DNA of 64,000 bases from NCBI GenBank assembly GCA_963674965.2, contig CAXXFL010000001.1, positions 1 to 64,000 on the forward strand. The letters are read 5' to 3'. The DNA is from a bacterium. GTDB lineage: Bacteria > RBG-13-61-14 > DATKZS01. The position numbers and the translations under genes are program-made. This document shows positions 3,101 through 17,109 of the stretch, in pieces. Below the pieces are notes generated by a model. That model did no database searches, had not been told where the DNA came from, and saw nothing but the letters and a program-made list of their open reading frames with translations. Each line of letters opens with the position of its first letter. Position 1 is the first letter of the stretch.

Positions 3101-3694
3101 CGAGAGGAGGGAGAGGAACTTTTTCCATTCCTCCTTGTTTTTTCCGTGGGCCGTGCCCATGGCGTATCTTCCGGCGGTGTCGAGCACCACGGAGTCGTCG
3201 AAGAACCACCAGTCCAGGTTGGTGGTGGCCGAGTCCCCCGGCGGGTGTCCCAGGTCGGGGAAACAGGAGGGCAGCCTCGAGTTCTTGAGGGCCGTGGTTT
3301 TTCCCGAGGACTGCTCGCCTATCATCAGGTACCAGGGCAGGGCGTAAAGGGGGTTTCCCCTTTTTTTGAGGCGGGACTTCTTGAGCCTGTCCACCGCCTC
3401 CCTGAACCTGTTCTCCAGGTCCTGGAGCTGGCGGGCCTCGAACATGGGCGTCCCGGCGGCGGTCTCCTGCTCGATCACCTGGCGGACGAACCCTTCCTCC
3501 CGCCGCCTGAACACCAGCTTCCTCACGAACAGGATCAGCCCGAGAACGGCCACGATCGAGCCCGGGATCACCAGGGATATCCACCAGGGCCATCCCAGTC
3601 TCGGACAAAGGTAAAAATAGGTGCCCAGCCCTATCGCCACCAGGACCGCGACGAACAGAGTCCACTTGAGTATTGTCCACAATATCTTCGTCAT
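140..3694 (-). CDS. tssM: T6SS membrane complex protein TssM (IcmF)
   Basis: 1184 aa; N-terminal TM helices, LYALPWYLMIG, Walker A GEQSSGKTT, DWWF, LDTAGRY, PINGVVV, FPVYVLVTKLD, LRGIFFSSA. Confidence 0.97.
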   Translation of the reverse strand: MTKILWTILKWTLFVAVLVAIGLGTYFYLCPRLGWPWWISLVIPGSIVAVLGLILFVRKLVFRRREEGFVRQVIEQETAAGTPMFEARQLQDLENRFREAVDRLKKSRLKKRGNPLYALPWYLMIGEQSSGKTTALKNSRLPSCFPDLGHPPGDSATTNLDWWFFDDSVVLDTAGRYAMGTAHGKNKEEWKKFLSLLSRYRKKEPINGVVVAVPADKLRSARKEDVEQYGRGVNQSIDHVMRVLGAKFPVYVLVTKLDQVPGMNSFCGAFPWRAFKEGMGNVNRNVKRDTQTFIDETFASITERLKDLKLVILHENENADPAMLLFPEEFERLKPGLEAFIKGAFQENPYQEPAMLRGIFFSSAQQAGQPKSDMLVPLGVNREMHENLPGSNRGFFLQDFFSKILPDDRYMYSPLREYMNWKRSTRYLGAAAVMGVALVAVALTFFSFVKNYNALDSYTEKFEKPPEMVRDATRDIILLDSFRSQIMELEGLNANWWLPRMGLYQSREVEKGLKERYVNLFKEGRPLVDKGAKDRLEGLLERIDDEMGSRIAALDETTPNEVVGDYAEHLVKRINLIEAYLDGVPIEKQKEMPQPSTAVVLIIDSTLLPTVASNFNSLYLYYLNWSVDGEEIKREKKKLEGMLIKLVKLKGKSMPWLIAWANREEGLEPVTLAQFWYDRIDDSEETGIMVPPAYTVKGKERIEGFIGQMKKALAEANARKDGDPLDMEGRIASFQDYYGDEYIASWRRFAEDFVKEEYKMRDKEDDVKRARRQWQDLSVAMTTFVNPYFEFTDKMADELGHLENKKDAPAWVKLVVDFQPMKQQVIREGFLEKGMSFAQKFEKAAEGAFKGDPGQARDEVQRHVKAMESLQAYQKALQDISPALESKEKAYQMASGLFKSDDPGKAKSPFNDGFMAVKQFKSYKGSKRGDDQVFWDLMEGPVRNLLYYTCMDAACALQSSWEESVLAELEGVPRATLQNEMFGESGIVWKFAQGPASPFISKNPRGYYARQAYGEQIPFSSEFKSFLTAGSVGRHMLLDEYEVGIEGLPTDVNAGAMTKPEAVVVEMICSEGVQRIENLNYPVKQSFKWNPELCGGVKMDIRFRDFTLTKTYPHYSGFPKFLMDFRNGDKIFTQQDFPLHKMEMDNLGVNFIQVKFELKGHEPLIDLIEKTPLAAPRKIVYCWN

Positions 3695-3732
3695 TTGCCG
3701 CCCTACGCTGTCTTTGCCGCCTTCATCGCCGA

Positions 3733-4395
3733 CTAGAGGATGCCGCCCGCCATCTTGTCAAGAATCCCGCTGAAAACGATAAAGGCCGCCGCCGCGCTTC
3801 CCGCCGCCGCCGCCGCCACGCCCACCGCGAAGGGAACGACGCTCCAGTCCACCCGCCTCCTGGCTTTTTCCCGCTCCGATATGTAGGAGCCCGGAAAGAA
3901 CCTGGCCTCCTCGGAAATATAGGGGTTCGAGCCTATGTCCAGAATCCTGGCCAGGGCCTGGTCCCCCACCTTGTCCAGGTCCTCCAGGGACCTGACCGCG
4001 AAATACCTGCCGCTGAACCCGAGCACCAGGCACGCGCAATAGACCTCCATCACGCGCCCTCCGTCTTCCCCCAGCCTTCCCAGCCGCTCGAAGAACTCAA
4101 CGCCCGCGTTGGTGGTATGGTAGTACTCCCTTTGAAGCTGCCGGTCCTTCCAGCTTTCCTTCTCGCTCCAGCTCGAGAGCAGGATGACCTCGTCCACCCA
4201 GGCGCAGACGGCGAACTTGGCGCTATCGAAGTCGGGCTCGGCGAACCCGGCCTCCTTGGCCAGCCTCTGGGCGTTCTCGAGCAGAAGCTCGATCTCCCTC
4301 CGGAAGACGTCGAAGGGCGGATGGCTCTCGGAAAGGCGCGACATGGAATAGGCCACGTACGAAACCGGGCCGGAAAAACAGTCGAGCAGCCTCAA
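3733..4395 (-). CDS. tssL: T6SS protein TssL (DotU family), no OmpA domain
   Basis: AKFAVCAWVDEVIL, W...LQ..Y..TTNAGVEFFERL, EVYCACLVLGFSGRY and a C-terminal TM helix; located between tssK and tssM. Confidence 0.95.
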   Translation of the reverse strand: MRLLDCFSGPVSYVAYSMSRLSESHPPFDVFRREIELLLENAQRLAKEAGFAEPDFDSAKFAVCAWVDEVILLSSWSEKESWKDRQLQREYYHTTNAGVEFFERLGRLGEDGGRVMEVYCACLVLGFSGRYFAVRSLEDLDKVGDQALARILDIGSNPYISEEARFFPGSYISEREKARRRVDWSVVPFAVGVAAAAAGSAAAAFIVFSGILDKMAGGIL

Positions 4396-4396
4396 G

Positions 4397-5788
4397 TCAC
4401 GACCTCCTCATCACGATCACCTCGGCGATAAGGTCCTCGGGCGCGGCGTTCCAATGCAGGGCGATGTTCCCGTCCCTTCTCACGTCGTCCCACTGGGTGC
4501 CGGACAGGTCGATCCTGAAGTAGGAGGCGTTGCCTATCTGGGGCAGGCCGGGGGGAGGCACGGGCAGATACTCGAGGACCAGGCCCGGCAGGGCCCTCGA
4601 GATCAGGATGGGCAGGTTCTCCTTGGCCGAGAGCTTGCTCACCGAGCCGATGGCGTCCACCACCTCGGCCTTGTCCAGGTCCGTCCTCAGCGACAGGTAA
4701 TAAACGTTCTTGTCGCTGAACACGGCCGGCTCCATCTCTCCCTGGTAGTACTGGTCAGCCAGCTCGAGCTTGATGATCGCCTCGGGACCGTAGGTGATAT
4801 CATCCAGCAGCCGGCTGATGAGCTTGTGCAGCCTCGAGTAGCTGTACTCGAGGTCCAGGTGCTTGTAGGGGGGGACAACCTTGGCCCCCGTCACGTCCTC
4901 GCCCGTGGCGCTCATGGTCTGGGAGAAGGTGGTCAGCTCGCCCACCATCTGCACCAGCACCTCGTACACGTTCCAGGGGTGGACCTCCCTGGTGTCCATC
5001 ATGTGGTGGAGCCAGAGGGCGTAGCGCGAAAGCGTGCGAAGGCCCATGAGAAGGAAGAAAACGCCGCCCTCGATCTCGCCCGAGCGCATGCCCCTCGGGC
5101 TCTTGTATTCCTCGAGCCGGCGGCAGCGGGCGCTCAGCTTGTCGTAAACGTCCTTGATAAGGCCCATGAGCTGGGGGGCCGAGTCGATCCGGAGGGAGGG
5201 CGGGATAAAGCGGGCCGACAGCCTGACCTTGTCCTCCCCCGCCTCGAGCACCGCCGCGGGAATGAGCACGTACTTGCTCAGCTCGTCCTTTTCCGACTCC
5301 CAGAATATGCGGGGAACGTAGCTCAGGCGCTTGACCTTGGCCTGAGGACCGTCCTGGTAGAGGTCGGCCACGTCCTCGGGGTCGGAGGTGGTCACGAACC
5401 GCGAGGTTATGGCGCCCACGTCCTCCAGGCTCGAGACCTCGGTCACGTTGTCCGAGGCCTGGTCGAGCTTCTTGAGACCGAGGAACACCTTGAGAGGACG
5501 GCCGCCCTCGAGGGGCGCGTCCTCGAGCGACCGGCTCCGGATGACGCCGTTCCCGGGAAAGGTCACGTAGGTCCCGTCGGGAAAAACCAGCTCGGCCTCG
5601 TCGATGGCCAGCATGCCGTTCTCCAGGGACTCGGCGTTAAAGGTCAATGAGCTTACGCCCCACATGTACGGGTTCGCGAACTTGGCGAAGGGCGTCAAGA
5701 GCGACTGGTGGTACATGTCGGAAAGCTGGAAATGCTGAGGCTGAAGAAACAGTCCCTGGTGCCAGAAAATGGGTCGTTGATTTTTCAC
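4397..5788 (-). CDS. tssK: T6SS baseplate subunit TssK
   Basis: IFWHQGLFLQPQHFQ start, FIPPSL, HPWNVY..L, PPYKHLDL, ALPGL..L..PP motifs; GTG start. Confidence 0.96.
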   Translation of the reverse strand: MKNQRPIFWHQGLFLQPQHFQLSDMYHQSLLTPFAKFANPYMWGVSSLTFNAESLENGMLAIDEAELVFPDGTYVTFPGNGVIRSRSLEDAPLEGGRPLKVFLGLKKLDQASDNVTEVSSLEDVGAITSRFVTTSDPEDVADLYQDGPQAKVKRLSYVPRIFWESEKDELSKYVLIPAAVLEAGEDKVRLSARFIPPSLRIDSAPQLMGLIKDVYDKLSARCRRLEEYKSPRGMRSGEIEGGVFFLLMGLRTLSRYALWLHHMMDTREVHPWNVYEVLVQMVGELTTFSQTMSATGEDVTGAKVVPPYKHLDLEYSYSRLHKLISRLLDDITYGPEAIIKLELADQYYQGEMEPAVFSDKNVYYLSLRTDLDKAEVVDAIGSVSKLSAKENLPILISRALPGLVLEYLPVPPPGLPQIGNASYFRIDLSGTQWDDVRRDGNIALHWNAAPEDLIAEVIVMRRS

Positions 5789-5791
5789 CGC

Positions 5792-6394
5792 TTACTCCAG
5801 TGTCTGTTGGATTTCCTCGGGACCGAAATAAAAGCGGACCTCGAGCTTGTCGGGCACGGCCGTGTGTTTCCGGATGAAAAAGCCGCTCTTCTCGATCCTT
5901 ACCGGGACCAGGACCAGCTTGGAAACGTGTCCCGGCCATAAATTGTAGTATCCAGCCACCACCCCGAAAAACCTGGCGTCCTCGGCCCGGTCGAAAACGA
6001 TGGTCTCCTCGTCCCCCGGGTGGACCACCAGGGGCTCCGAGCTGGCCACGCTCTCGTCGAAGCGCTGGCACTCGAGGAGCTTGATCACGCCCTCCCGGCT
6101 GGCCTTGAGGTCGTTGAAGGCGTTGGGGTCGATAAGCTGGTACATGCACACGAAAAGGGTGTGGGCCTCGTCGTCGTGGACGTTAAGGTTGGGGTCGGCC
6201 CGGTAGGTCATCTTGATGCCCTTGGCCTGGAAGGGCCATTTCTCCAGTTCCTCTATCTTTTTGGCGCAGGAGAAAACCGAGGCCAGGGCGAGGGTCAACA
6301 TCACGGCCAGACCGCGAGCCAAGGGCCTGGGGGCCTTGCCGCCAAGAAGGATGGTCAGTTTTTTCGGCGTTCTCATTACAACGTTTTTAGCCAT
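5792..6394 (-). CDS. tssJ: T6SS lipoprotein TssJ
   Basis: Lipobox-like LASVFSC, ADPNLN, MYQL...F, DRAEDARFFGVVAGYY. First gene of the tssJKLM run; ATG 6394 chosen for its upstream GAGGAAGG. Confidence 0.9.
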   Translation of the reverse strand: MAKNVVMRTPKKLTILLGGKAPRPLARGLAVMLTLALASVFSCAKKIEELEKWPFQAKGIKMTYRADPNLNVHDDEAHTLFVCMYQLIDPNAFNDLKASREGVIKLLECQRFDESVASSEPLVVHPGDEETIVFDRAEDARFFGVVAGYYNLWPGHVSKLVLVPVRIEKSGFFIRKHTAVPDKLEVRFYFGPEEIQQTLE

Positions 6395-7071
6395 CGATCC
6401 TTCCTCGTTCACGTCGCGAGGGCCATGGACCGGACGCTTAAAGATCGATCGCGCGTCCTTTCCCTCACTTATATCCGCCAGAGCGCTTCCACTTGAGCAT
6501 ACGCCTAGGGCCGAAAACCCGGCCAGTGTCGCCGCCGGACTCGGGGGTCCTTTAAAAGGTCGTTTTTAAGTTATATCCTTTCCGGTCCGAAGATATGAAG
6601 TCAAAATACTACCAGGCCGGTTACCCCATGCTCTTCTTCCCGCTACCCATGAACCAATAGGGGAGCGGCGCGAATCGCCGCAATTCCCGAAACTATTCAA
6701 AATGCCATGAGTATTGTTTTGCGGTTCACGTTCCGGCGAACTTCAGCGGTAGCGTGGGGCTTGAGGCGCGTTGTCAGCTTGGGGCGCGTACTTCGTGGAA
6801 CTTTGACAAAGCCGGAACATGTTTCCACGCAAATTTAATATGGCGACTATATACCAACGCGCCCAAAGAATCAAGGACAAATTTAACAAATTATTTTGAA
6901 GATCGAACAAGGGAAAAAGTCTTTTCGCTTTTTTCGGCCATTTCGGTTTTATTCCCTCCAGCCTTGTGTTATTATTCCCCCAGACCCGCCCGCCGGACCT
7001 CCAGAAACAAGGCGCGGCGCGGGAACCGACGCCGCCCATCCTCGCGGCGATCCGACCAAGGAGAAGTTCGC

Positions 7072-8004
7072 ATGAAGATTAGGACGCTGACCGCCGCTCT
7101 TTGCCTTGCCATCTCGCTCCTGGCGGCCCTTCCCGGGCTGGCCGCCTCCAGCGCCTCCCTGGGCCGGTACGTGGACTACCAGGCCGAGGAGGGCGGCGGC
7201 CGCATAACGGGCAAGCTTAAAAACCTCTTCAAGCCCTGGTGGAAAAAGTCCGGCGACGATAAAAAAGCCGACAAGCACGCCCCCGAGGAATCGGACGAGG
7301 ACGAGGCCCTCGAGGGGGCCCCTCCCAAGCCCGAGAAGGAGACCAAGTGGGGCTACTTCGTGGGTCCCATGTTCTTCCTTTTAAACTCGGACTTCTCCAA
7401 CCTCGATCCCATGACCGGCGACCGGGGAATAAACTCCTTCAGCGACAACACCTTCTTATGGGGCGTTTACGGAGGGGCCATCAGGGGCAGTTACAGGTTC
7501 GGCGGGTTCTACCTCACCGGGTACCAGGCCGACAACGAGCTCATCCTCAACCGCACGCGCCGGGCCGAGATTGATTACATGGGATACGGCGGCTTCTTCG
7601 AGTATTCCCACGAGTACATGACCTACAAGCGAAAGAACTACCCCGCCCACGTGCCCTACATGCGCTACGGCTACATCATGGGCCTGATGGCATCCACCGG
7701 GACCATGGACTTCCTGGCCGAGGGGCCCGACATGGGAGAATCCAACCAGTGGAGCGCAAGCGCGCCCATCCAGACCGCCTACCCCTACGTCGGACTGTGG
7801 CTCTCCCCCTACGACTGGCTGTGGCTGCAGATCGACGTGGGCTACCTTATGTTCTTCATGGACGTCTCGGGAGACGAGTTCGTCAACGACGCGGGGACCA
7901 GGATGGTGACCGACGAGTTCGGCGACGGCGTCCAGATCGGGCTCAGGTTCACCTTCGGCGAAAACCCCAACGTCGAGTACGCCCCCCCCAACAGGCCAAG
8001 GTAG
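7072..8004 (+). CDS. Secreted or outer-membrane beta-barrel-like hypothetical protein
   Basis: AAGGAG RBS before ATG 7072, Sec signal peptide, acidic linker, then amphipathic Gly/aromatic-rich strands ending GVQIGLRFTFG. Confidence 0.65.
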   Translation: MKIRTLTAALCLAISLLAALPGLAASSASLGRYVDYQAEEGGGRITGKLKNLFKPWWKKSGDDKKADKHAPEESDEDEALEGAPPKPEKETKWGYFVGPMFFLLNSDFSNLDPMTGDRGINSFSDNTFLWGVYGGAIRGSYRFGGFYLTGYQADNELILNRTRRAEIDYMGYGGFFEYSHEYMTYKRKNYPAHVPYMRYGYIMGLMASTGTMDFLAEGPDMGESNQWSASAPIQTAYPYVGLWLSPYDWLWLQIDVGYLMFFMDVSGDEFVNDAGTRMVTDEFGDGVQIGLRFTFGENPNVEYAPPNRPR

Positions 8005-8087
8005 GAATAAGAAGAAACCGGATGGCCACCCACCGCTCCCATAGGATCGCGGCCCCCTTCCCGCGCCTTCGGCGCCCAGATAGCAAA

Positions 8088-8278
8088 TTTTCAGCGCCAT
8101 GACATAGTTTACACCTTGTGCCACAACATGGTTTACACTTTCGGCATCTTGATCTTTGTTTTGGAGGTGATTGGGATGCCGTGGAAAGAGGTCGACATCC
8201 ATGATAAGTCTCTGTCAAGGGGAGAGGGAGGCTCCCCGTTCTTCGACGATTTATCCGCTGATCAACTCATGCTATCAT
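8088..8278 (+). mobile_element. IS481-family left-end remnant with the first codons of a transposase
   Basis: Direct repeats ACATAGTTTACAC (8102-8114) and ACATGGTTTACAC (8126-8138), then GGAGGT and ATG 8176 encoding MPWKEVD, a typical IS481 transposase start. No recognisable continuation; right boundary inferred from the coaD break. Confidence 0.7.
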
Positions 8279-8696
8279 CCTCCTTGATCAGGCTGGAGGA
8301 CAAGTGCGAATAGCATCCCTCGGTCATCATGAACAGGGTCTCGACCGCGGGCTTCATCTGGCGGTTGGTATGGGCCATGGCTATCTCGTACTCGAAGTCG
8401 GTGGTGTTGCGAAGTCCGCGCAGCAGGATGCCGGCGCCCTTTCCCTCGGCGTAGTCCACGAGCAGGCTCTTCTTAAAGGAGTCGACCTTGACGTTCGAAA
8501 GGCCCTTGGGAAGGATTTTCCTCCAAAGGTCAAGACGCTCCTCGGTGGAGAACACGTAACGCTTGCTGGTGCTGTCGGCCACCGCGATGATGACCTCGTC
8601 GAAAATGGCCGCCGAGCGGGACACGATGTTAAGGTGCCCAAGGGTCGGGGGATCGAAACTCCCCGGATACGCCGCTATTACCTTCTTCTTAGCCAA
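8262..8696 (-). pseudogene. coaD: Phosphopantetheine adenylyltransferase, C-terminally truncated or interrupted
   Basis: YPGSFDPPTLGH, LRGLRNTTDFEYE, ETLFM, SSSLIKE. Homology stops there and DDSMS* follows instead of the usual ~20-residue tail. TTG start at 8696 after GGGAGGGAG. Confidence 0.85.
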
Positions 8697-8990
8697 TACT
8701 CCCTCCCGCGCCGATCGATTCAAGACCAGTTATTCTATGAAAAAACGCGAGAAGACGCAACAAAAAAGCGTGCCAAGGCACGAACCTTGGACCATGCTCT
8801 ATTGTTTATCGATATATGCAAAAGTAATAAGAAAATCGAGCCATCAGGAGAAACTGAAATCTTATCGCCAACATTGCAGAGCATAACACGCCGTTATTAC
8901 AAGTGATTTTCTCCAATTTGCGCGTTGACTTTTTATCCCTTTTCTGTTCTATATACTTTATTGAGATGAATCCATCCCAGGAGGTCTTGA

Positions 8991-9625
8991 ATGAAGGATT
9001 TTAAGAGCCTTGGTGTCCTTTTTCTGGTTGTTGCTTCTGTCCTGCTTCTTGGGCAAACTCAATCCTCCGTACCGCCGACCATTTACTATCAGGGAAGAAT
9101 TGCCGATGATTATGTCTCTCCCGTTGAGGACGGCGAGTTTGAATTTTATTTTCTTATCTTTGACGCCGTTTCCGGTGGTGACTTGCTTTGGTCTGAATCT
9201 CAGCCCGGGGTTGCGGTTTCAGGGGGTCTGTATAAGGCTAACCTTGGGGCCGTGGAGCCTATTGAATTCTCCATTTTCAATGGCAAAGATGCTTATCTTG
9301 AAGTCCGTGTGTTTGGGAAGACGCTTGGGCCAAGGGCCAGGGTCGTTTCCAGTCCTTTTGCTCTCAAGGTGGAGGGCGAGGTTCCGGAAGGAGCGATTAT
9401 TCTGAGCGAGCTTAGCGGTGACACGGCCATAACCAACTTTGGCTTTACCGAGCAGGGAAGTACTATAAACTCTTATTATTTGTATAAAAAAGACGCTTAC
9501 AATCCCTCACGGCCTCGCGTTCCCCAAAGGATTTTATACCAAGGACGATTGCTTCCGGCGGATGGAGGCACGGTTGGAAGCACGGCAAATTTCACTTTCT
9601 CCATATATGACGCGGACACCGCCGG
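8991..9625 (+). pseudogene. Secreted protein with tandem 'YQGR' domains, truncated in the second repeat
   Basis: GGAGG RBS and signal peptide; PPTIYYQGRI...FLIFDAVSGGDLLWSE, then VPQRILYQGRL...[10 protein letters not shown], which breaks off. The ORF continues to 9719 through unrelated sequence. Visibly AT-richer than its flanks. Confidence 0.7.
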
Positions 9626-9706
9626 TATCCGCCCGACAAGCAAGAGGCGGCGACCAAGACGGTCATCGAACAGGCGGAGTTGTTGTCAGCGGATTGGGCG
9701 GGTTAA
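9626..9706 (+). pseudogene. hsdR: 3' terminal fragment of type I restriction endonuclease subunit R
   Basis: An alternative frame reads [26 protein letters not shown], matching the HsdR C-terminus I recall as [15 protein letters not shown] (DUF3387). Confidence 0.8.
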
Positions 9707-10077
9707 GACGCTAATATGAAGATATTTCTTCCCAGCTATTCTATGGTGAAACTTGCTTTGTGTGGTAGCTATTTAGCGCTCCCCGTAGTATGAACTTTTA
9801 AAGAAAAATAAGTATATTCTTCTTTCCTTCCACCCTCCTGTACCCGAAAGAATCATGACCGGAGGACCGAGCGGACGAGGGACGGAGGGCGCAATTATTT
9901 CGGGTCAATCCCCTGACGGAAATATGAAAAAGCTTCTCCATATCTCCGTATCCCTCCACCCATCTATTCGAGGTCAAGAGATCGTAAGCATCACGAGGCG
10001 GTCACCACCGTTCCGTCCGCCATTCTTTCCTTATAGAGTTGCCTATGGTACGGCGTTAACTGGCAAAGACTAGGAAT

Positions 10078-10451
10078 TCACTTGCTCGCCTTTACCATGG
10101 CCACAATCCCGGCCCGGACGGCCTCGGGGAGGTCGTTCCATTTATCCACTACAAGGGAAAGGTCGGCGTCCAGGACGGCGCGTCCCGGCCCCTGGCCGCT
10201 CATGTCCTGGCCCTGGCCGTGGTCCTCTCCTGGCCGGGGAAGGCCCGGTTTATTGTATACCGTACTGGATACCGTTCCGGGATTGTTCCGGGATTTTTCT
10301 TTCCGCGACGGGTTATCAAGCTGTACCCCATCTGTCCGGGCGCAATTTGCGACGCCGCCTAATTCATCGGTAAGGCTCGGATATTGTATTGGATTTTCGT
10401 CTTTTTGTCCGGGGTTGTCCTGAATTTGTCCGGTCTCGAAATTGCTGGAAA
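10078..10451 (-). mobile_element. Possible att-adjacent relic of an integrative element downstream of tRNA-Val
   Basis: Open frame continuing out of the tRNA 3' half and ending DADLSLVVDKWNDLPEAVRAGIVAMVKASK, a peptide type I recall from integrase tails and tRNA att sites. Confidence 0.45.
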
Positions 10452-10527
10452 TGGTAGGCACGTGGGGATTTGAACCCCAGACCCCTACCGCGTCAAGGTA
10501 GTGCTCTCCCAACTGAGCTACGTGCCT
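10452..10527 (-). tRNA. tRNA-Val(GAC)
   Basis: 76 nt; acceptor AGGCACG/CGTGCCT, D-arm TAGCTCAGTTGGGAGAGC, anticodon arm CTACC-TTGACGC-GGTAG, T-loop GTTCAAATC, encoded CCA. Confidence 0.97.
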
Positions 10528-10540
10528 AGGTACAGATAGT

Positions 10541-10568
10541 AGTATGCCTCAATAACCGGAATTGTCAA
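10541..10568 (-). promoter_or_regulatory. Sigma70-type promoter of tRNA-Val
   Basis: TTGACA-N16-CATACT ending 13 nt upstream of the tRNA. Confidence 0.6.
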
Positions 10569-10691
10569 GCCCCGGAAGGTTGGACGGACGGTGGGATCAG
10601 CCGGCGGGAGGGCCGGGGGATTGGGGCGCGAGAAGAGGGCGAGGCGCCGCCGGGCGCTTGGAGGCGGGGCGGCGCCTTGGCGGTTTGGTGA

Positions 10692-11309
10692 CTATTTCTT
10701 TTCTTTCTTCCGAGGGAGGTCGCCGGCCGTTTGGGGCTCGGCGAGGACGTCGCCGGTCACGGTGTTCATGGTCTTGTTGGCGAAGCCCATGATGGTGATC
10801 ACGGCCAGGACGTCCCTTCTTTCCTGCTCGTTATAGTTGGCCTCGAACTCGGCCACCACCTCCTCGTCGGGGAACTCGCCTCGGAAGAGGGCGTAGTCCC
10901 GCACCCAGGCCAGGGCCGCCCGCTCGCGGGGGTCGAAGTCCTCGGGGTTGAGATCGACCAGGGAAAGTATCTCCTCGTCCGTGAGTCCCGCCTTTCTCCC
11001 GAACTGGGAGTGGGCCTGGAATCACCCCACGCAGTGGTTGTTGATGGTCAGGGTAAGGCAAAGCTTCTCGCGGAAGGCCGGGTCTATCCAGCCCATGTCC
11101 ACCGGGCCTCCGTTCAGGCGCTTGAAGAGGATGATGTTGTTCACCTTGCCATAGTGCTTGAGGAAGTCGCCCGCCCCCTCGAACTTGGGATGATTGACGC
11201 TGACGCCGAAGTTGTTTTGGGTGGGGGCCTTTTTCGCCGCGCAACCCGTAAGGACCAGGATAGCCGTCCCTACAAGCCCCAAGAGACTTTTCAATTTTAT
11301 GCCGGTCAT
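10692..11309 (-). CDS. AhpD/CMD-family selenoprotein with lipoprotein signal (Sec at 11022-11024; 205 aa)
   Basis: ORFs 11022..11357 and 10692..10904 are in one frame, split by a single TGA. Read-through gives IDPAFREKLCLTLTINNHCVG-U-FQAHSQFGRKAGLTDEEI, matching the AhpD CxxCxxxH motif. GGGAGG RBS, lipobox LTGC, SECIS-like hairpin. Confidence 0.88.
10990..11015 (-). promoter_or_regulatory. Bacterial SECIS-like hairpin
   Basis: GCC-CA-CUCCC-AGUUC-GGGAG-AAA-GGC. The apical loop follows the UGA after 16 nt and has a G in its first two positions followed by U. Confidence 0.72.
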
Positions 11310-11387
11310 GATGACGCCTCCCGATAAAAATATAACCTCATGGCGGGCAAATGGCAATCGTTTTTTTTCGCTCGCGCCCGGCCTCGC

Positions 11388-11837
11388 CTAGCGGGCGGCC
11401 AAACCCTCGATGGCGGTCTTCCACTTTTCCTCGTCGGACACGAAGAAGCCGACCCTGGTTCCATCCTGGAGGTGCAGGACCAAAACCTTTTTGCCCGCGA
11501 CCCAGTTACCCAGAAAGGATTTTTCCACGGTCACTTGACCGATCTCATAGGCCCCGAGCCGGATGACGTTCTTTCCCACCAGGGGATGGAAGGTCAGCCC
11601 TCCTCGAGCAAGGTATATTACACCGTTGCATTTAATCCTTCCGAACCTCGCGGTGGAGCCTCGAAAGCTTCCGCTTTCCGGCGCGATAATGGTCCCGCCG
11701 GGATCGAGACTTATCTCCTCCTCGATCTTGCGCCGAATTTTTTTGGATTTGCCGGCAAAAAAATACAAGAGGGCCCCGATCGTGAAAAAGAGGGCCAAGA
11801 AAAGTAAGACTACGGGAAAGACAACGGTTAAGGCCAT
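11388..11837 (-). CDS. Membrane-anchored hypothetical protein (possibly PH-like beta domain)
   Basis: AAGGAA RBS, N-terminal TM helix, CNGVIYL..GGLTF and RVGFFV.D.EKW pattern. Confidence 0.65.
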   Translation of the reverse strand: MALTVVFPVVLLFLALFFTIGALLYFFAGKSKKIRRKIEEEISLDPGGTIIAPESGSFRGSTARFGRIKCNGVIYLARGGLTFHPLVGKNVIRLGAYEIGQVTVEKSFLGNWVAGKKVLVLHLQDGTRVGFFVSDEEKWKTAIEGLAAR

Positions 11838-12250
11838 GGCGATTTCCTTTGCTTGACGCGTTCTATCGCCCGGATTTTCCGGACGTCCTCCTCGATGTCC
11901 CTCACGGTGAGGCCTCCGCATATAAATATACACTCTGACGGGCAAATCTCAATAGGCAAGCCTGGCCAAAAACCAAGCCTAGAATTGGCCGTGACGGAAA
12001 AAACGCGGCAAGCGTCCGGCTTTTTTCGCCAGGAATGAAAATATTTTTCGTCTTTTACTACTAAATATGCTATCTTCTTGAGATCATCACGCCGCGGCGG
12101 GGAGCTATTTAACCTTGGAGCGGCCGTCGGCGGTTTTGAAAACCCACGGGAAAAGAGATTGCGACTCTGAAAAAATGTCGATTTTACCTTGCTTTAAGAA
12201 AGTCGATATAGTAATTTCGATCTAATGAAAGGTTCAAGGAGGAAAGAAAT

Positions 12251-12757
12251 ATGAAATGTCCATCTTGCGGAGCGGACAACGCTGACGGCAACATCATGTG
12301 CACGAACTGCGGCAACTCGCTCGAGGGGACCCAGCAGGCCCAACAACCGGCTCAGCCGGCCCAGCCCGCCCCTCCCCCCGCGCAACAGGCCTACGCTCCC
12401 CAGCAGGGCGGCTACGCCCCGCCGCCTCAGGGCGGGTACCAGCAGCAGGGCGGATACCCGCCGCAGGGAGGGTTCCCGCCGGGCGGGGGCATGCCCGCGG
12501 GCCAGCAGGTGCCCAACTACCTGGTCATGGCCATCCTCTCGATTTTCTGCTGCTGGCCTTTGGCCATCGTGGCCATCATCTTCGCCACCCAGGTTAACTC
12601 GAAACTGGCCATGGGCGACGTGGCCGGGGCCATGGACGCCTCGAAAAAGGCCAAGCTTTTCTCCATGATCGGAATAGGAATCGGCGTGGCCTTCACGTTG
12701 CTTTATATTATCCTCATGGTGGTGGGAATGGTCGCCGGTGGGATGCAGAGCTATTGA
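12251..12757 (+). CDS. CD225/dispanin-family protein with N-terminal zinc ribbon
   Basis: CPSC...CTNC, P/Q/G-rich linker, VPNYLVMAILSIFCCWPLAIVAIIFATQVN...GD..GA..AS.KAK. Confidence 0.92.
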   Translation: MKCPSCGADNADGNIMCTNCGNSLEGTQQAQQPAQPAQPAPPPAQQAYAPQQGGYAPPPQGGYQQQGGYPPQGGFPPGGGMPAGQQVPNYLVMAILSIFCCWPLAIVAIIFATQVNSKLAMGDVAGAMDASKKAKLFSMIGIGIGVAFTLLYIILMVVGMVAGGMQSY

Positions 12758-12843
12758 TCGGCCTTGATTATTGCATGATATTGCCCGCTCCGCGGCGGGC
12801 TTGAAAGGGTATTGGCGTTAACCAATCAGCAAGGAGGGAATGA

Positions 12844-13215
12844 ATGGATCGTTTGACTGGAAGTGGTAGAGGATTATCCAACAGGACAGAGATGGGAGCT
12901 CCTCCTCCCGGCCAGCCGGGCATGCCCGGCCCGGGAATGCCTGGAGGGGCCCCGCCGGCCAGCGTGCCCAACAACCTGATACTGGCTATCCTGGTCACGT
13001 TGTTCTGCTGTCTGCCGGGCGGGATAGTGGCCATTGTTTTCGCCACGCAGGTCAATTCCAAACTGGCCGCCGGCGACGTGGCTGGGGCCATGGACGCCTC
13101 GAAAAAGGCGAAAATGATATCTCTTATCTCCGCGGGTATCGGTCTCGCCTTTATAATCATTTACGTGATTTTAATGGTGGTCGTCGGAGTCGGCGGAGGC
13201 ATGTCGTCCTATTGA
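12844..13215 (+). CDS. CD225/dispanin-family protein
   Basis: AAGGAGG RBS; VPNNLILAILVTLFCCLPGGIVAIVFATQVN. Alternative start at 12892. Confidence 0.9.
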   Translation: MDRLTGSGRGLSNRTEMGAPPPGQPGMPGPGMPGGAPPASVPNNLILAILVTLFCCLPGGIVAIVFATQVNSKLAAGDVAGAMDASKKAKMISLISAGIGLAFIIIYVILMVVVGVGGGMSSY

Positions 13216-13242
13216 TCGTTACCGTTCCCTTTTGGGAGTGAT

Positions 13243-13632
13243 ATGAACAACTTCAACGGTTCGAAACCATTTTCGGGAGTATCGTACCAGCCGCCCGGCC
13301 CCCCTTACGGGCCGGGCGGGTACGCTCCCCCTCCCATGGGTTATCCGGGCCAACCCATAATCCTGCCGCCCGTCAACAACCATCTGGTGTTCGCCATCAT
13401 GGTCACTATTTTCTGCTGCCTGCCCGGCGGGGTCATCGCCTTAATCTACGCCTCTCAGGTCAACGGCAAACTGGCCATGGGCGACTACAACGGCGCCATG
13501 GCGTCCTCGCGGAGCGCCAACTTCTGGTGCTGGCTGTCGGTGATACTGATGGGCCTGGTTTACGCGGCCATGGGGGTTTTCTACGGGATAATGATTCTGG
13601 TGGCCATCCTGTCCGAGTCCGGGGGCTACTGA
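13243..13632 (+). CDS. CD225/dispanin-family protein
   Basis: Pro-rich N-terminus; NNHLVFAIMVTIFCCLPGGVIALIYASQVN...GDYNGA..SS.SA. Confidence 0.9.
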   Translation: MNNFNGSKPFSGVSYQPPGPPYGPGGYAPPPMGYPGQPIILPPVNNHLVFAIMVTIFCCLPGGVIALIYASQVNGKLAMGDYNGAMASSRSANFWCWLSVILMGLVYAAMGVFYGIMILVAILSESGGY

Positions 13633-13674
13633 TCCAAAGACGCCAAACCGCGAGGGCGCGAAGGGCCGGGTAAA

Positions 13675-14046
13675 ATGGGCGATCCTTACGACGGGTCATG
13701 GCAGGGCAAATACCACCTCTCGGGCCAGACTAACCCTTACGGACCGGGCCAGGCATATCAAGAGCCTTTGCCGCCGGTCCAGAACTACCTGGTCTTCGCC
13801 GTGCTTGCCACTCTTTTCTGTTGTCTGCCCCTGGGAGTGGTGGCCATCCTCTTCGCCACCCAGGTCAACACCAAGCTGGCCCAGGGAGATTATTTCGGAG
13901 CGGTCAAGGCCTCGAACAACGCCAGGAACTTCTGCCTTATCTCGGCGGGGGTCCAGGCCGTGATCTACCTCATTACCATCATCATCTACGTGGCTTACGC
14001 CATTTTCGCCTACGGGATCATTTCCGATTTGACCGAGACGATATGA
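13675..14046 (+). CDS. CD225/dispanin-family protein
   Basis: QNYLVFAVLATLFCCLPLGVVAILFATQVN...GDYFGA..AS.NA. Confidence 0.9.
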   Translation: MGDPYDGSWQGKYHLSGQTNPYGPGQAYQEPLPPVQNYLVFAVLATLFCCLPLGVVAILFATQVNTKLAQGDYFGAVKASNNARNFCLISAGVQAVIYLITIIIYVAYAIFAYGIISDLTETI

Positions 14047-14134
14047 GCGGCAAGACGGAAAGGAGGTGGACTTCCCACATTTTGAAAAACTTGGGATATA
14101 CGGCTCGTGGCGATCTGCATACGAATCTCGGGCC

Positions 14135-14353
14135 AAAGCCCGAAGGGCTTTAACATGAATAGCCGTAGGCGCCAGCCTACGGGAAGCGTGGCCGGTAATT
14201 TCTTACCCGCCCCCGAAGGGGGCGAACCTTGCCGGGCGTCGGCAATCCAGGTCGCCGGTGGTCCGGCCCATTCAGGGCCGAAGAACATTTTAAAAGCCAT
14301 CCTTTCCGTAGGCTGGCGCCTACGGCTATTCGAATTTTCCCCCTTCGGGGGAA
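14135..14353. repeat. REPIN/MITE-like palindromic element
   Basis: Perfect 26-bp inverted repeat GAATAGCCGTAGGCGCCAGCCTACGG (14157-14182 and 14306-14331), plus short CCCGAAGGG / CCCTTCGGG hairpins outside and between the arms. Confidence 0.75.
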
Positions 14354-14461
14354 GACGGCTACGTCCGTTTCAGCGGCGTCGGCGGCCGACTGATCGAGGA
14401 GGCAACGGTTGATTTTCACTTCGAGCGGCGGACAACTTGCCGGATAAAAAAGGAACCAAGA

Positions 14462-14890
14462 GTGAAACGGTCAAAATTGGGGGAAGTTCCGGGAAAGGAG
14501 AAGCTGAAGGCGGCGGCCGTCCTCTTGGTGGCGTTTTGTTTCGCGCTGGTCCTTTTCTTTTTCAAGCCCGGCTCGGGCGGGATATATCCACCCTGTCCCT
14601 TCCACGCCCTGACGGGTCTTTATTGTCCCGGGTGCGGCACTCTCCGCGGCCTTCACCAGCTTCTGCACGGCCATTTCTGGGCGGCCCTGGACTATAACCC
14701 CCTGATGGTGCTGTCCCTTCCCTTTATCGGATATTACCTGGCCTCCCAGGTATCGATACTAACTCGCGGCCGTCCCCTCAAGGCGTACTTTTACCCGGTC
14801 TGGCTGATCTGGACCATATTTTACGTCATCATCGGCTACTGGGTTATCCGTAACCTTCCCTGGTTTCCCTTTACATATCTTGCGCCTTGA
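14462..14890 (+). CDS. DUF2752 domain membrane protein
   Basis: PPCPFHALTGLYCPGCGTLRGLHQLLHG...A..YNPL and C-terminal WVIRNLP. Confidence 0.9.
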   Translation: MKRSKLGEVPGKEKLKAAAVLLVAFCFALVLFFFKPGSGGIYPPCPFHALTGLYCPGCGTLRGLHQLLHGHFWAALDYNPLMVLSLPFIGYYLASQVSILTRGRPLKAYFYPVWLIWTIFYVIIGYWVIRNLPWFPFTYLAP

Positions 14891-17078
14891 CCCGGCCGTT
14901 TCCGTTGGACTCGAGCGTTTGCAGGACGATGGTGAACGTCGTGCCTTTTCCCGGATCGCTCTCGAGGATTATGCCGCCGCCGTGGCTCCTGATTATCCCC
15001 TGGACCTCGGCCAGTCCCAAGCCCCGGCCGGTCAAGCCGGTGGTGAAAAAGGGGTCGAATATCTTTTCCATCAAGTCCTTGTCCATGCCTTTTCCCTGGT
15101 CGAACACCTGGATGAACAGGCACTCCCCTTTTTTAAGATCGTATCCTTCCGGCATCTTCTCCAGCGTGGCCTCGTCGCACTTCCCGAGGCCGACCTTGAC
15201 CAGTACCTTTCCTTTCGCGTCCTCCATGGACTCGGCCGCGTTGGCCATGACGTTCATGAGGGCCCGCTTCATTTGCGTGGGATCGAGCCTCATCTCCGGC
15301 AGGTCCTCTTCCAGTTCGACCCCTATCTCGATTCCCTCGGGAAGGTCCAAAGAGATTTCCTCCGCGGCCTCGCGGATTATTTCCTCCACCGCGTGACGCT
15401 CGAGGGTTATCCCGCCCTTGCCCGCGTAGGAAACCATCTTCGCGCATATTTCCGCGGCCCGCATGGCCGAGTTCCTCACGTTGGCCAGCCCCTTGGAGGC
15501 TTCCCTGGAGAAGGACTCGTCAATCATGACAAGGTCGATATGGCCTATGACGCTGGTCAGGATATTGTTGAAATTATGGGCTATGCCGCCGGCCACGGTC
15601 CCCATGCTCTCGAGCTTCCTCGCGTAGGCCGCCCTTCTTTCCATCCTTTCCTTTTCCGCTTCCGCCGCCTTGATTTCGGTGATTAACTCGATAAAGACGA
15701 TAAACCCGGCCGGCTCTCCCAGCGGGTCACGCCAGGGATGGACTTTCCACCGAATCCACTCGGGAGGCTTGCCGGGCAGGCTGAGCTCGCTTTCTCCGGC
15801 GATGTTCTCGACCCCCACCAGGGCCCGGTCGTGGGCGTCCTTGATCTCCTCGGGCAAATAAGGATAGACGTCCAAATAGGACATGCCCAGCATGTCGCCC
15901 TCCAGGTTGAAGGTCTCGCGCCACCTTCGGCTCTCGAGGAGTATCTTTTTGTTTTTATCGAACAGGGCCACCATGTTGGGCGATTGCTCGATGAACCTTC
16001 TCAGCCTTTCCTCCCTGGCCTTGAGGTCCGCGTCCTTTTCGTCCAGGGCGTCGAGCATGACGTTGATGCCGCCCTCGAGGCGGGATATCTCGTCGTCGCC
16101 CTCCACGGCCAGCCGCCGGGACGAATCCTTGCTCGAGGCGATCTCCTCGACCGTCTCCGCGGCGAGTCTGACCCGGCCCAAAACGAACCTCTCAAGCATG
16201 ACAACCAGGACCACGAGCAGGATCACGCCGGAAAGCATCACGAAAAAAAGCGCGTACATCTGAGACCGCTTGCCCTCGGCCAGGGTCCTTCTATCCCTTA
16301 GTATCTCGAGGGCCAGGGCGGGGTCCCCATCCAGGCCGCGGAATATGGACTCGATCTTTAATTTTCCATCGCTTATCTCGGAAAGCGAATATGGGTTGCC
16401 AAGATTGGACCTCCTGCCCGTCTCGTCGGCAAGGACGCGCGAGAAAGAGGCGTCCGCCTTAACGATAGCCAAGTCAACCTTGGCCTGGTTCGCTATGGAC
16501 TCGATCATGCCGGGAGTCAGGAGCTTGCCCATGATCATGGTACCCTTGAAGGGTCCCTTGTTCTCGCTGGTTACGATGGCGCGAGATGAAACCAGGCATG
16601 GTCCCCATCTGGAGTTGTAGACTCCCCGCTTGACGGAATCGTCCGACGTGGCCAGAAGGCCATTATCACTAAGGAAACCCTTTGAGGCGGACTCGGGCGC
16701 CTCGATGAAAACCATTTTTTCCAGGTCGTACGCCGCGCCCCACAATACTTCGCCGGCAAGGTCGACCACGTATATCACGTTGTGGTCGGTGGTATGAAAG
16801 GTGTTCTCGAGCAGGTTGCACGAGGCGAATTCCCCGTTTCGGTCCTGAACGAACCGGTACAGGTCGTCCCAGGCGGCCCAGTCGAAGCAGGTCTTGTCGA
16901 TGAACTCGATTTCCTTCTGGATGACTTCCTCGCACCTGTTGAGGTCTTTTTGCGCTTCCTCCCTCTCGAGCTGCTCGAAGCTGGGAAATATTATCAGAGC
17001 GAACGCCGCGTACACCAGGAGAGTGTAAATGGCGAAAACGGCAAGGCCGATGGATATGGCTTTGGCGCGAATAGTCAT
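14871..17078 (-). CDS. CHASE4-HAMP-PAS sensor histidine kinase
   Basis: TM, DWAAWDDLY.F (CHASE4), TM-HAMP, PAS, H-box GIAHNFNNILT, NVMANAAES, DQGKGM, FDPFFTT, GRGLGL. Confidence 0.92.
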   Translation of the reverse strand: MTIRAKAISIGLAVFAIYTLLVYAAFALIIFPSFEQLEREEAQKDLNRCEEVIQKEIEFIDKTCFDWAAWDDLYRFVQDRNGEFASCNLLENTFHTTDHNVIYVVDLAGEVLWGAAYDLEKMVFIEAPESASKGFLSDNGLLATSDDSVKRGVYNSRWGPCLVSSRAIVTSENKGPFKGTMIMGKLLTPGMIESIANQAKVDLAIVKADASFSRVLADETGRRSNLGNPYSLSEISDGKLKIESIFRGLDGDPALALEILRDRRTLAEGKRSQMYALFFVMLSGVILLVVLVVMLERFVLGRVRLAAETVEEIASSKDSSRRLAVEGDDEISRLEGGINVMLDALDEKDADLKAREERLRRFIEQSPNMVALFDKNKKILLESRRWRETFNLEGDMLGMSYLDVYPYLPEEIKDAHDRALVGVENIAGESELSLPGKPPEWIRWKVHPWRDPLGEPAGFIVFIELITEIKAAEAEKERMERRAAYARKLESMGTVAGGIAHNFNNILTSVIGHIDLVMIDESFSREASKGLANVRNSAMRAAEICAKMVSYAGKGGITLERHAVEEIIREAAEEISLDLPEGIEIGVELEEDLPEMRLDPTQMKRALMNVMANAAESMEDAKGKVLVKVGLGKCDEATLEKMPEGYDLKKGECLFIQVFDQGKGMDKDLMEKIFDPFFTTGLTGRGLGLAEVQGIIRSHGGGIILESDPGKGTTFTIVLQTLESNGNGRVKAQDM

Positions 17079-17109
17079 GTCATGGCCGCAACCTGGCATT
17101 AATTATAGA

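Follow-up and report, generated by a model that had tools for sequence, protein, structure and literature searches.

At positions 12251 to 14890 of the 64,000-nucleotide (nt) stretch of bacterial DNA analysed here (the window; positions 1 to 64,000 of contig CAXXFL010000001.1), four genes for CD225 (dispanin) proteins, g1 to g4, are followed by a gene for a DUF2752 protein. This locus is an expanded, four-to-one form of a widespread, uncharacterised two-gene membrane module made of CD225 and DUF2752. A preliminary description, made from the letters of the stretch, had assigned the five genes to these two families, and a Pfam scan bore this out with all five genes far above the cut-offs: the CD225 matches (PF04505) of g1-g4 reached 79.7-88.6 bits against a gathering cut-off of 27.1, and the DUF2752 match (PF10825) reached 75.7 bits against a cut-off of 27. 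All five genes lie on one strand (Table 1), with intergenic spacers of 86 nt (g1-g2), 27 nt (g2-g3) and 42 nt (g3-g4), and a purine-rich ribosome-binding motif stands upstream of every gene in the array, including a GGAGG Shine-Dalgarno sequence 5' of the g1 start. In the 6.5-Mb genome PF04505 matches g1-g4 alone, and because these sole four matches adjoin one another, their clustering goes beyond chance.

The neighbourhood of CD225 and DUF2752, which the preliminary description had given as frequent in bacteria, proved to be a real and conserved association. With the window's DUF2752 as a single-sequence phmmer query, a homologue was found in 76 of the 80 loci that carry the closest CD225 homologues; the DUF2752 matches listed in these loci are all on the CD225 strand and usually start tens of bases past the CD225 stop, and at one of the four loci without a match (L097) the contig stops ~90 bases beyond CD225. 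The pair in the window is likewise adjacent and on the same strand, 415 nt apart now and ~10-20 nt apart once the mobile element described below is taken out. In a broad sample of 400 other genomes (12 class relatives and 388 from across the domain; match at E <= 0.001), DUF2752 adjoins CD225 in 10 of the 16 loci examined. Comparing the lists by hand placed DUF2752 in 13 of 18 CD225-positive vs 75 of 382 CD225-negative genomes, an association that kinship among the counted genomes inflates, and all nine strong CD225 matches (E < 1e-18) are accompanied by DUF2752. Canonical bacterial dispanins almost always accompany one DUF2752 subtype. The single-copy pairs in Acidobacteriota and other phyla (loci L018-L097) resemble the window in having both families on one strand with DUF2752 normally downstream, and they share the zinc-ribbon architecture of g1 and a core identity to g1/g2 of up to 75-77%; in contrast to the window, they hold one or two CD225 copies, never three or four, and no transposable element between the genes. 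In a metagenome-assembled genome of Blastocatellia (L018, 5953-8028), a gene for a zinc-ribbon-TM2 protein and a PemK/MazF-like toxin gene lie between CD225 and DUF2752.

DUF2752 is the more widespread partner, found in 88 of the 400 other genomes vs 18 of 400 for CD225, and is represented by 24,828 representatives at E <= 0.001 among 1.84 billion. Five class relatives of the window genome have DUF2752 and lack CD225. At two loci from class relatives (L126 and L127), the gene after DUF2752, on the same strand, encodes a zinc-ribbon-DUF4190 protein that also has a pilin-like region. As in the window, DUF2752 is thus paired with a zinc-ribbon protein bearing a small hydrophobic membrane domain; unlike in the window, the client carries DUF4190 and the pilin-like region in place of CD225, and the DUF2752 is of the lineage's own subtype. 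The arrangement, seen in two scanned open reading frames (ORFs), one from each of two relatives, suggests a general pattern of DUF2752 with a client.

BLASTP comparisons distinguish two DUF2752 subtypes, of which the window's copy is, by its sequence, the CD225-linked one. Against eight CD225-linked DUF2752 proteins it scored 91-114 bits with seven and 58.9 with that of genome G151 (see below), vs 50 bits against a second, unpaired DUF2752 of the same genome on contig 4 (C4:192459-192596; L007 1369-1782) and 35-45 bits against the copies of class relatives. The contig-4 copy, of the lineage's own subtype, reached 115 and 95 bits with relatives of the same family. An ORF beside it resembles a transposase by the look of its translation. 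Since the CD225-linked subtype is present here and CD225 is absent from the class relatives, the module appears to have been acquired as a unit, and it has probably long been resident in the lineage. Indeed, the G+C content of the array genes (0.56-0.64; genome 0.606 +/- 0.036) and their G+C at third codon positions (0.66-0.82; genome 0.737 +/- 0.106) fall within the genome range, indicating that the acquisition was not recent. Synteny with five relatives yielded no definable empty site, the matches to the neighbouring kinase being 26-37% identical and paralogue-like; a 185-residue protein encoded upstream has a match in one of the five.

Four-copy arrays being routine in related genomes would, by the preliminary description's own measure, have refuted it, and a copy-number survey found the opposite. 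No CD225 match occurs in the 12 genomes (87-97% complete) that share the window genome's family, order or class. In the 18 CD225-positive genomes of the broad sample, 17 have a single copy and one, G151, has five in tandem. In a second sample of 301 genomes, drawn from the phylum to which many of the closest homologues belong, CD225 occurs in 15, never in more than two copies, with one tandem pair (G445). The 80 closest loci, mostly from Acidobacteriota, have one copy in 76 cases and two in four (hidden Markov model search, 6 kb on each side), and one of these four (L026) looks like a split gene. Arrays of at least three tandem copies are therefore rare, with one case in 33 other CD225-positive genomes. 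This rarity marks an expanded variant and is not a sign of a new kind of system.

G151 is an independent second case of one DUF2752 with several dispanins. Its locus (L098; G151:C23:194000-206000) has, at 3691-7327, one DUF2752 gene and then five CD225 genes. All five copies open with a zinc-ribbon-like Cys pair, with weak Pfam zinc-ribbon hits in three; two of the five have the double cysteine, and the rest have C-x-C or a single Cys. Like the window, the locus combines one DUF2752 with a same-strand array of diverged CD225 genes, whereas its DUF2752 lies upstream of the array and its CD225 domains are far more divergent (21-37 bits). The one-to-one pair of CD225 and DUF2752 can thus expand to one-to-four or one-to-five.

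All four dispanins of the window are built alike. Each starts with a disordered tail rich in Pro, Gly and Tyr, to which g1 adds a zinc ribbon, and continues with a hydrophobic segment of ~25 residues interrupted at an invariant Cys-Cys-x-Pro, a basic loop containing an invariant GDxxG, and a single transmembrane helix with very few residues after it. The common core with differing N-termini, and the zinc ribbon in the first gene alone, had been read correctly from the letters: 27 columns are invariant, including N..L, FCC.P, A.QVN.KL..GD..GA and S..A, the tails are rich in Pro, Gly, Gln and Tyr, and the CxxC-x10-CxxC of g1 is matched by the zinc-ribbon families PF13248 and PF13240. Twelve positions are invariant in 121 bacterial sequences (N43, C55, C56, P58, Q69, V70, K73, G77, D78, G81, A82 and A89 in g2 numbering). 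FCC.P does not vary in g1-g4 or in the 121 sequences and aligns to ICCFWP of PRRT1; GD..GA is invariant too, and its GD aligns to the GD of PRRT1.

A profile of the four paralogues retrieved one solved structure, PRRT1 (9zks chain M, E 7e-20), in an alignment that pairs CC, P, QV and GD, and the 121-sequence profile matched the same chain at E 9e-23. Mouse PRRT1/SynDIG4 is thus the best solved relative by sequence. According to two structural papers of 2026, the CD225 domain of PRRT1 forms a re-entrant helix, M1a/M1b, whose apex bears two cysteines and faces the bilayer centre, the Gly-Asp motif lies in the cytosolic loop, and the tilted second transmembrane helix (TM2) stands between the transmembrane helices of GluA1 and CNIH2, PRRT1 being an auxiliary subunit of native AMPA receptors (bioRxiv 10.64898/2026.06.24.734257; PMC13262616). 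A homologous motif, GxxxG, is described as driving the oligomerisation of IFITM3 and PRRT2 (PMC7665892). The window proteins and PRRT1/SynDIG4 have in common a Pro-rich disordered N-terminus, the Cys-Cys apex followed by Pro, the Gly-Asp loop and one transmembrane helix. They differ in that PRRT1/SynDIG4 is eukaryotic and neuronal, with partners (GluA1/CNIH2) that have no counterpart here, a much longer N-terminus, no zinc ribbon and no DUF2752 partner, and in the loop motif, GDLVS in PRRT1 vs GDVAG in the window.

An AlphaFold2 model of g2 has a disordered tail (1-42), a helix at 45-55, a break at 56-59 (CC-x-P), a helix at 60-74, the GD loop and a helix at 79-119; its mean predicted local distance difference test (pLDDT) score is only 60, so the helix break rests on the sequence, and the low-confidence model gave no Foldseek matches. 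The loop holds 3.6 Lys and Arg per sequence, the hydrophobic segments hold none and the C-terminal tail has a mean of 5 residues, which is consistent with a type II layout with cytoplasmic N-terminus and loop, a single C-terminal transmembrane helix and a short tail outside; a zinc ribbon at the N-terminus also points to the cytoplasm for that end. IFITM3 and the IFITMs of Mycobacterium avium and M. abscessus share with the window proteins the Pfam family, the double cysteine and GxxxG, a likeness of family and motifs rather than of direct comparison, whereas the endocytic targeting of IFITM3 has no bacterial counterpart. In human cells, the mycobacterial proteins are reported to behave as functional homologues of IFITM3 (PMC4488726). 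The 2012 family survey proposes that dispanins are of bacterial origin and spread by gene transfer, and remarks that the cysteine motif persists in bacterial dispanins even though S-palmitoylation is not known from bacteria (PMC3282796). In the literature searched, with sources available in part, work on bacterial CD225/IFITM homologues consisted of this survey and the heterologous mycobacterial study, and no test of a native function was found for any bacterial dispanin, the mycobacterial proteins included.

Whether the four copies arose on the spot is less clear than the preliminary description had it. Its observations held: the near-identical DNA of g1 and g2 is a tract (12615-12652 vs 13073-13110) with 37 of 38 bases identical, the remaining cores being ~70% identical, and g1-g3 end in Tyr-TGA-TC. 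Judged from the sequence, the tract may be a short gene-conversion patch, which is a guess, and 20 of 120 outside homologues likewise have Tyr as their last residue. Over 77 core columns, identity is 71% for g1-g2, 44% for g1-g3, 51% for g1-g4, 46% for g2-g3, 53% for g2-g4 and 44% for g3-g4, with g2 the nearest of the four to the family consensus. The best outside homologues reach 77% (g1), 75% (g2), 56% (g3) and 59% (g4) in the core; therefore each paralogue has an outside homologue at least equal to any neighbour. Core nucleotide identity is 55-70% among g1-g4, and synonymous divergence (dS) is 0.78-1.36 across all six pairs and thus saturated. Non-synonymous divergence (dN) is 0.25 for g1-g2 (dN/dS ~0.24) and 0.50-0.65 for the other five pairs.

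Trees from the 75 usable columns were unresolved, with 15 of 199 inner branches starred for 206 rows and 6 of 91 for 94 rows, and g3 and g4 sat on long branches in both. The smaller set was obtained by dropping every row that had more than 8 gaps or was at least 80% identical to a kept row, together with two very long ones. With this 94-row set, an approximately unbiased (AU) test, which can fail to reject a g1-g4 clade and cannot demonstrate one, did not reject the four as one clade (p 0.561), and the clade-constrained tree lay 6.85 log-likelihood units above the tree from the free search. A single local origin of g1-g4 is therefore allowed by the sequences, not established. Of the proposed local duplication, the common origin stands as permissible and the recency falls: since dS is saturated and g3 and g4 are nearer to outsiders (56-59%) than to their neighbours (44-53%), a duplication, if there was one, must be old; otherwise the copies had diverged before the array arrived.

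The gap between g4 and the DUF2752 gene is due to a non-autonomous miniature inverted-repeat transposable element (MITE; Table 1), whose insertion accounts for the 415-nt distance; without it, g4 and DUF2752 would lie about as close as the two families do in other genomes. The arms of its internal hairpin are at 14139-14228 and 14260-14349. The genome holds 11 full-length copies, 82-86% identical, plus fragments; the others lie at C2:749162-749603, C2:354212-354638, C7:843498-843923, C7:729545-729973, C7:509328-509751, C1:291206-291635, C1:1204920-1205343, C1:98158-98596, C6:78860-79284 and C6:1026670-1027091, and several are flanked by duplications of 8-10 bp. The consensus folds at -135.6 kcal/mol, with compensatory changes in 10 of 110 pairs. 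No Rfam family matches the MITE, the only hit inside it being a sub-threshold SorX-like one (E 0.25), and it contains no transposase ORF. Most copies end in a GTG that faces outward and has AAGGA ahead of it. In the window, the corresponding end holds the GTG start of DUF2752 at 14462, AAGGA six bases upstream and the first ten codons, so that the MITE supplies the apparent (predicted) start and a basic N-terminal decapeptide, a small curiosity in itself. When the MITE and one copy of the duplication were removed in silico, no in-frame start, even a near-cognate one, remained between the upstream stop and the duplication, and the first candidates downstream were CTG 14504, TTG 14525 and GTG 14528.

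These features raise the possibility that the array is a decaying remnant, now functionless, in which DUF2752 is mis-expressed after the insertion and redundant paralogues drift. The position of the MITE exactly at the 5' end of DUF2752, the lack of an upstream start in the pre-insertion model, the long branches of g3 and g4 and a dN/dS of 0.4-0.8 for pairs with g3 or g4, on saturated dS, all fit this view. We nevertheless consider it improbable. All five frames are open and every family-invariant residue is kept; the insertion is probably not very recent, given 14-18% divergence between MITE copies, and the frame of 142 codons has nevertheless stayed intact; and the MITE itself provides a start codon and ribosome-binding motif. 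Moreover, two contigs from a metatranscriptome library, 98-99% identical, span 12835-13262, which takes in g2 and the beginning of g3, although such RNA libraries can contain DNA; 11900-15100 is otherwise without cover there, an absence carrying no information. A small-share DNA run (X4) also holds a 151-nt piece identical to g2.

DUF2752 itself is predicted to have three transmembrane helices and carries an invariant C-x9-C-x2-C motif. In 45 sequences including the window's, C45, T51, C55, C58, G59, R62 and N79 are invariant, and prolines, R130 and N131 nearly so; the window protein conforms to the extended pattern C-x9-C-x2-C-G-x2-R. Its AlphaFold2 model (mean pLDDT 84) shows three long helices; a 46-residue segment made up of short helices separates the first from the second, and the cysteine motif lies within this segment. 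A full-text literature search for 'DUF2752' found no paper.

Taken together, the best reading of the locus, to which we give about an even chance, is an expanded membrane module centred on DUF2752, with the four dispanins as auxiliary subunits or clients that would bind it. DUF2752 is placed at the core, and the dispanins around it rather than the reverse, because of the direction of co-occurrence, the other types of client, the one-to-many arrays and the way in which the CD225 domain of PRRT1 binds transmembrane helices of other proteins. The four paralogues would co-assemble through GDxxG around one DUF2752, or would be handled by it, and one membrane module would thereby gain four different cytoplasmic tails. 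The invariant cysteines of both partners would be the likely point of contact or chemistry. A thiol-based link between dispanin and DUF2752 is attractive because there are invariant cysteines on both sides and because bacteria that do not palmitoylate keep the dispanin cysteines all the same, a puzzle raised in the family survey (PMC3282796); it is a link that we purely infer. Constitutive organisation of the membrane or envelope, or the recruitment of cytoplasmic partners, appears a more likely role than immunity. Antiviral immunity and synapses are two settings in which dispanins (IFITM, PRRT, SynDIG and TUSC5) are important, and the pairing turns the function of bacterial dispanins into a concrete two-protein problem with mutable sites, namely the CC apex, GDxxG and C-x9-C-x2-C. 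DUF2752 has further apparent zinc-ribbon membrane clients besides CD225.

The same cysteines allow a different view, in which DUF2752 is a thiol-active membrane enzyme or chaperone (for oxidation, metal insertion or lipid attachment) that acts transiently on Cys-Cys clients, so that the four paralogues would be four substrates and not stable subunits. We give this view a clearly lower probability. Conservation in DUF2752, CPGC included, is enzyme-like, the dispanin CC is invariant and its bacterial role is an acknowledged puzzle in the family survey (PMC3282796), a single DUF2752 serves four dispanin genes in the window and five in G151, and DUF2752 also adjoins other zinc-ribbon proteins with small membrane domains. 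In addition, at least one copy has a CC or CxC apex at all 10 DUF2752-adjacent loci of the broad sample, vs CC in 2 of the 6 others, a contrast from a small sample that is confounded by divergence. On the other hand, DUF2752 has no likeness in fold or sequence to a known oxidoreductase or acyltransferase (DsbB gave Z 3.4, within noise), a redox or lipid-donor gene is absent nearby, and charge counts do not fix the membrane side of the DUF2752 cysteines. A further step would make DUF2752 the reason for the retention of the intramembrane Cys-Cys by bacterial dispanins: it would be an enzyme, or a metal or thiol chaperone, for which the apex cysteines of zinc-ribbon dispanin-type clients (CD225, DUF4190 and others) are the sites of modification or ligation. 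CD225-DUF2752 would then be the ancestral writer-client system behind the palmitoylation-dependent eukaryotic IFITM and PRRT proteins, and the arrays would be one writer with several clients that differ in their cytoplasmic tails; this extension we hold to be doubtful.

Several observations also weigh against the DUF2752-centred module itself. The model of DUF2752 has no Foldseek match at E <= 0.001, its best score against 48,161 chains (VIA-align, Z 3.7) is noise for helical proteins, the ESM Atlas holds no usable match, and its profile found nothing meaningful among PDB sequences (E 0.97); with no solved structural relative, nothing points to an activity. The distribution of Lys and Arg does not fix its orientation, and the dispanin apex enters from the cytoplasmic side, so that the two cysteine motifs may or may not be able to meet. 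Kinship, as noted, raises the association counts, and 6 of the 16 broad-sample loci, mostly with weak CD225 hits, have no adjacent DUF2752. No CD225-DUF2752 fusion was seen in the best 150 of the 24,828 DUF2752 representatives (102-277 residues), and six longer DUF2752 proteins (five from these 150 and one of 401 residues) have no CD225 by Pfam, in a search that covered proteins of ~250-337 residues poorly. Lastly, with the MITE in place DUF2752 may be uncoupled from g1-g4 or have a changed N-terminus, so that the module could be partly disabled here.

The preliminary description had suggested a possible role in envelope stress or in defence against phage or contact toxins, and its defence part was not borne out. 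In such a scheme, an IFITM-like barrier would stiffen or alter the cytoplasmic membrane against phage genome entry or toxins, and the diversity of the paralogues would reflect an arms race. Eukaryotic IFITMs block viral fusion, and two mycobacterial homologues are reported to give moderate influenza resistance in human cells (PMC4488726); the patchy distribution (18 of 400 and 15 of 301 genomes), the absence of the module from class relatives and the divergence of the paralogues would also suit such a role. However, no PADLOC model matched the five proteins or their upstream neighbour at E <= 0.1 (PADLOC-DB 2.0, library of 2023), and around the array lie a sensor kinase gene, a tRNA gene, coaD and genes for small membrane proteins rather than defence genes. 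Viral collections are nearly devoid of the CD225 family, with 0 confirmed cases in IMG/VR (pattern scan) and one in 50,697 phage records, and composition gives no sign of recent arrival. A stable, single-copy syntenic pair across dozens of Terriglobia-like Acidobacteriota species is a better fit to housekeeping, and we judge defence unlikely.

The window also begins with genes of a type VI secretion system (T6SS), namely tssM (IcmF), tssL (DotU), tssK (VasE) and the gene for a tssJ lipoprotein, at 140-6412 on the opposite strand, in a cluster that extends beyond the window start. Paralogous small membrane proteins in tandem are a frequent arrangement of immunity genes, and g1-g4 could accordingly confer immunity to type VI effectors that target membranes and are encoded near the tss genes. 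This is very improbable: the nearest T6SS gene ends at 6412, and the ~5.8 kb between include coaD and tRNA-Val, which also separate the array from the T6SS genes as a source of contact toxins. Beside the array there is no gene for an effector, VgrG, PAAR or Hcp, and 6754-11945 has no effector-type domain, though ORFs without a family there leave some doubt. CD225-DUF2752 is moreover single-copy in many of the genomes surveyed for these two families. Defence, T6SS immunity and decay are all less likely than the DUF2752-centred module.

Table 1. Coordinates of the features of the locus in the window.
Feature	Position	Strand	Description
Promoter candidate	12183-12212	+	sigma-70-like, TTTACC-18-TATAGT, 9/12 consensus matches, upstream of g1
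g1	12251-12757	+	168 residues; zinc ribbon, long Gln/Pro/Gly/Tyr-rich linker, CD225; PF04505 E 1.7e-23
G+C-rich hairpin	12783-12800	+	in the g1-g2 spacer, read from the sequence; no trailing T run
g2	12844-13215	+	123 residues; Pro/Gly-rich tail and CD225; PF04505 E 2.9e-25
g3	13243-13632	+	129 residues; PPGY-rich tail and divergent CD225; PF04505 E 1.8e-22
g4	13675-14046	+	123 residues; short tail, divergent CD225, longer C-terminus; PF04505 E 1e-22
Target-site duplication, left copy	14057-14065		9 bp, GGAAAGGAG; identical to 14492-14500
MITE	14066-14491	+	426 bp, non-autonomous; imperfect ~20-bp terminal inverted repeats, long internal hairpin
DUF2752 gene	14462-14890	+	142 residues; PF10825 E 2.8e-21
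Target-site duplication, right copy	14492-14500		GGAAAGGAG; now codons 11-13 of the DUF2752 ORF

The promoter candidate upstream of g1, from a consensus scan, is weakly supported, with 4 such sites in the region vs 1.7 expected. Between the T6SS genes and the array lie unassigned ORFs, coaD (8262-8723) and tRNA-Val (10452-10527), after which come two small membrane or lipoprotein-like ORFs that have no family match. On the other side, a CHASE4-HAMP-PAS histidine kinase gene (14871-17099, minus strand) is convergent with the array and overlaps the 3' end of the DUF2752 gene by 20 nt (14871-14890). An ORF of 242 residues at 8991-9719 (plus strand) lies in a stretch of lower G+C content (0.48-0.50) and has a sub-threshold match to NF053851 (E 3.6e-7, 30 bits vs a cut-off of 60), the N-terminal domain of Bdellovibrio-type mosaic adhesive trimer fibre proteins.

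Elsewhere in the genome, an ORF cluster at C1:782284-785413 (minus strand) encodes six GYF_2 domains (E 1e-12 to 1e-16). Proline-rich peptides are the ligands of GYF domains, and since some CD225 homologues are fused to GYF_2, these proteins are candidate readers of the Pro-rich tails of the dispanins.

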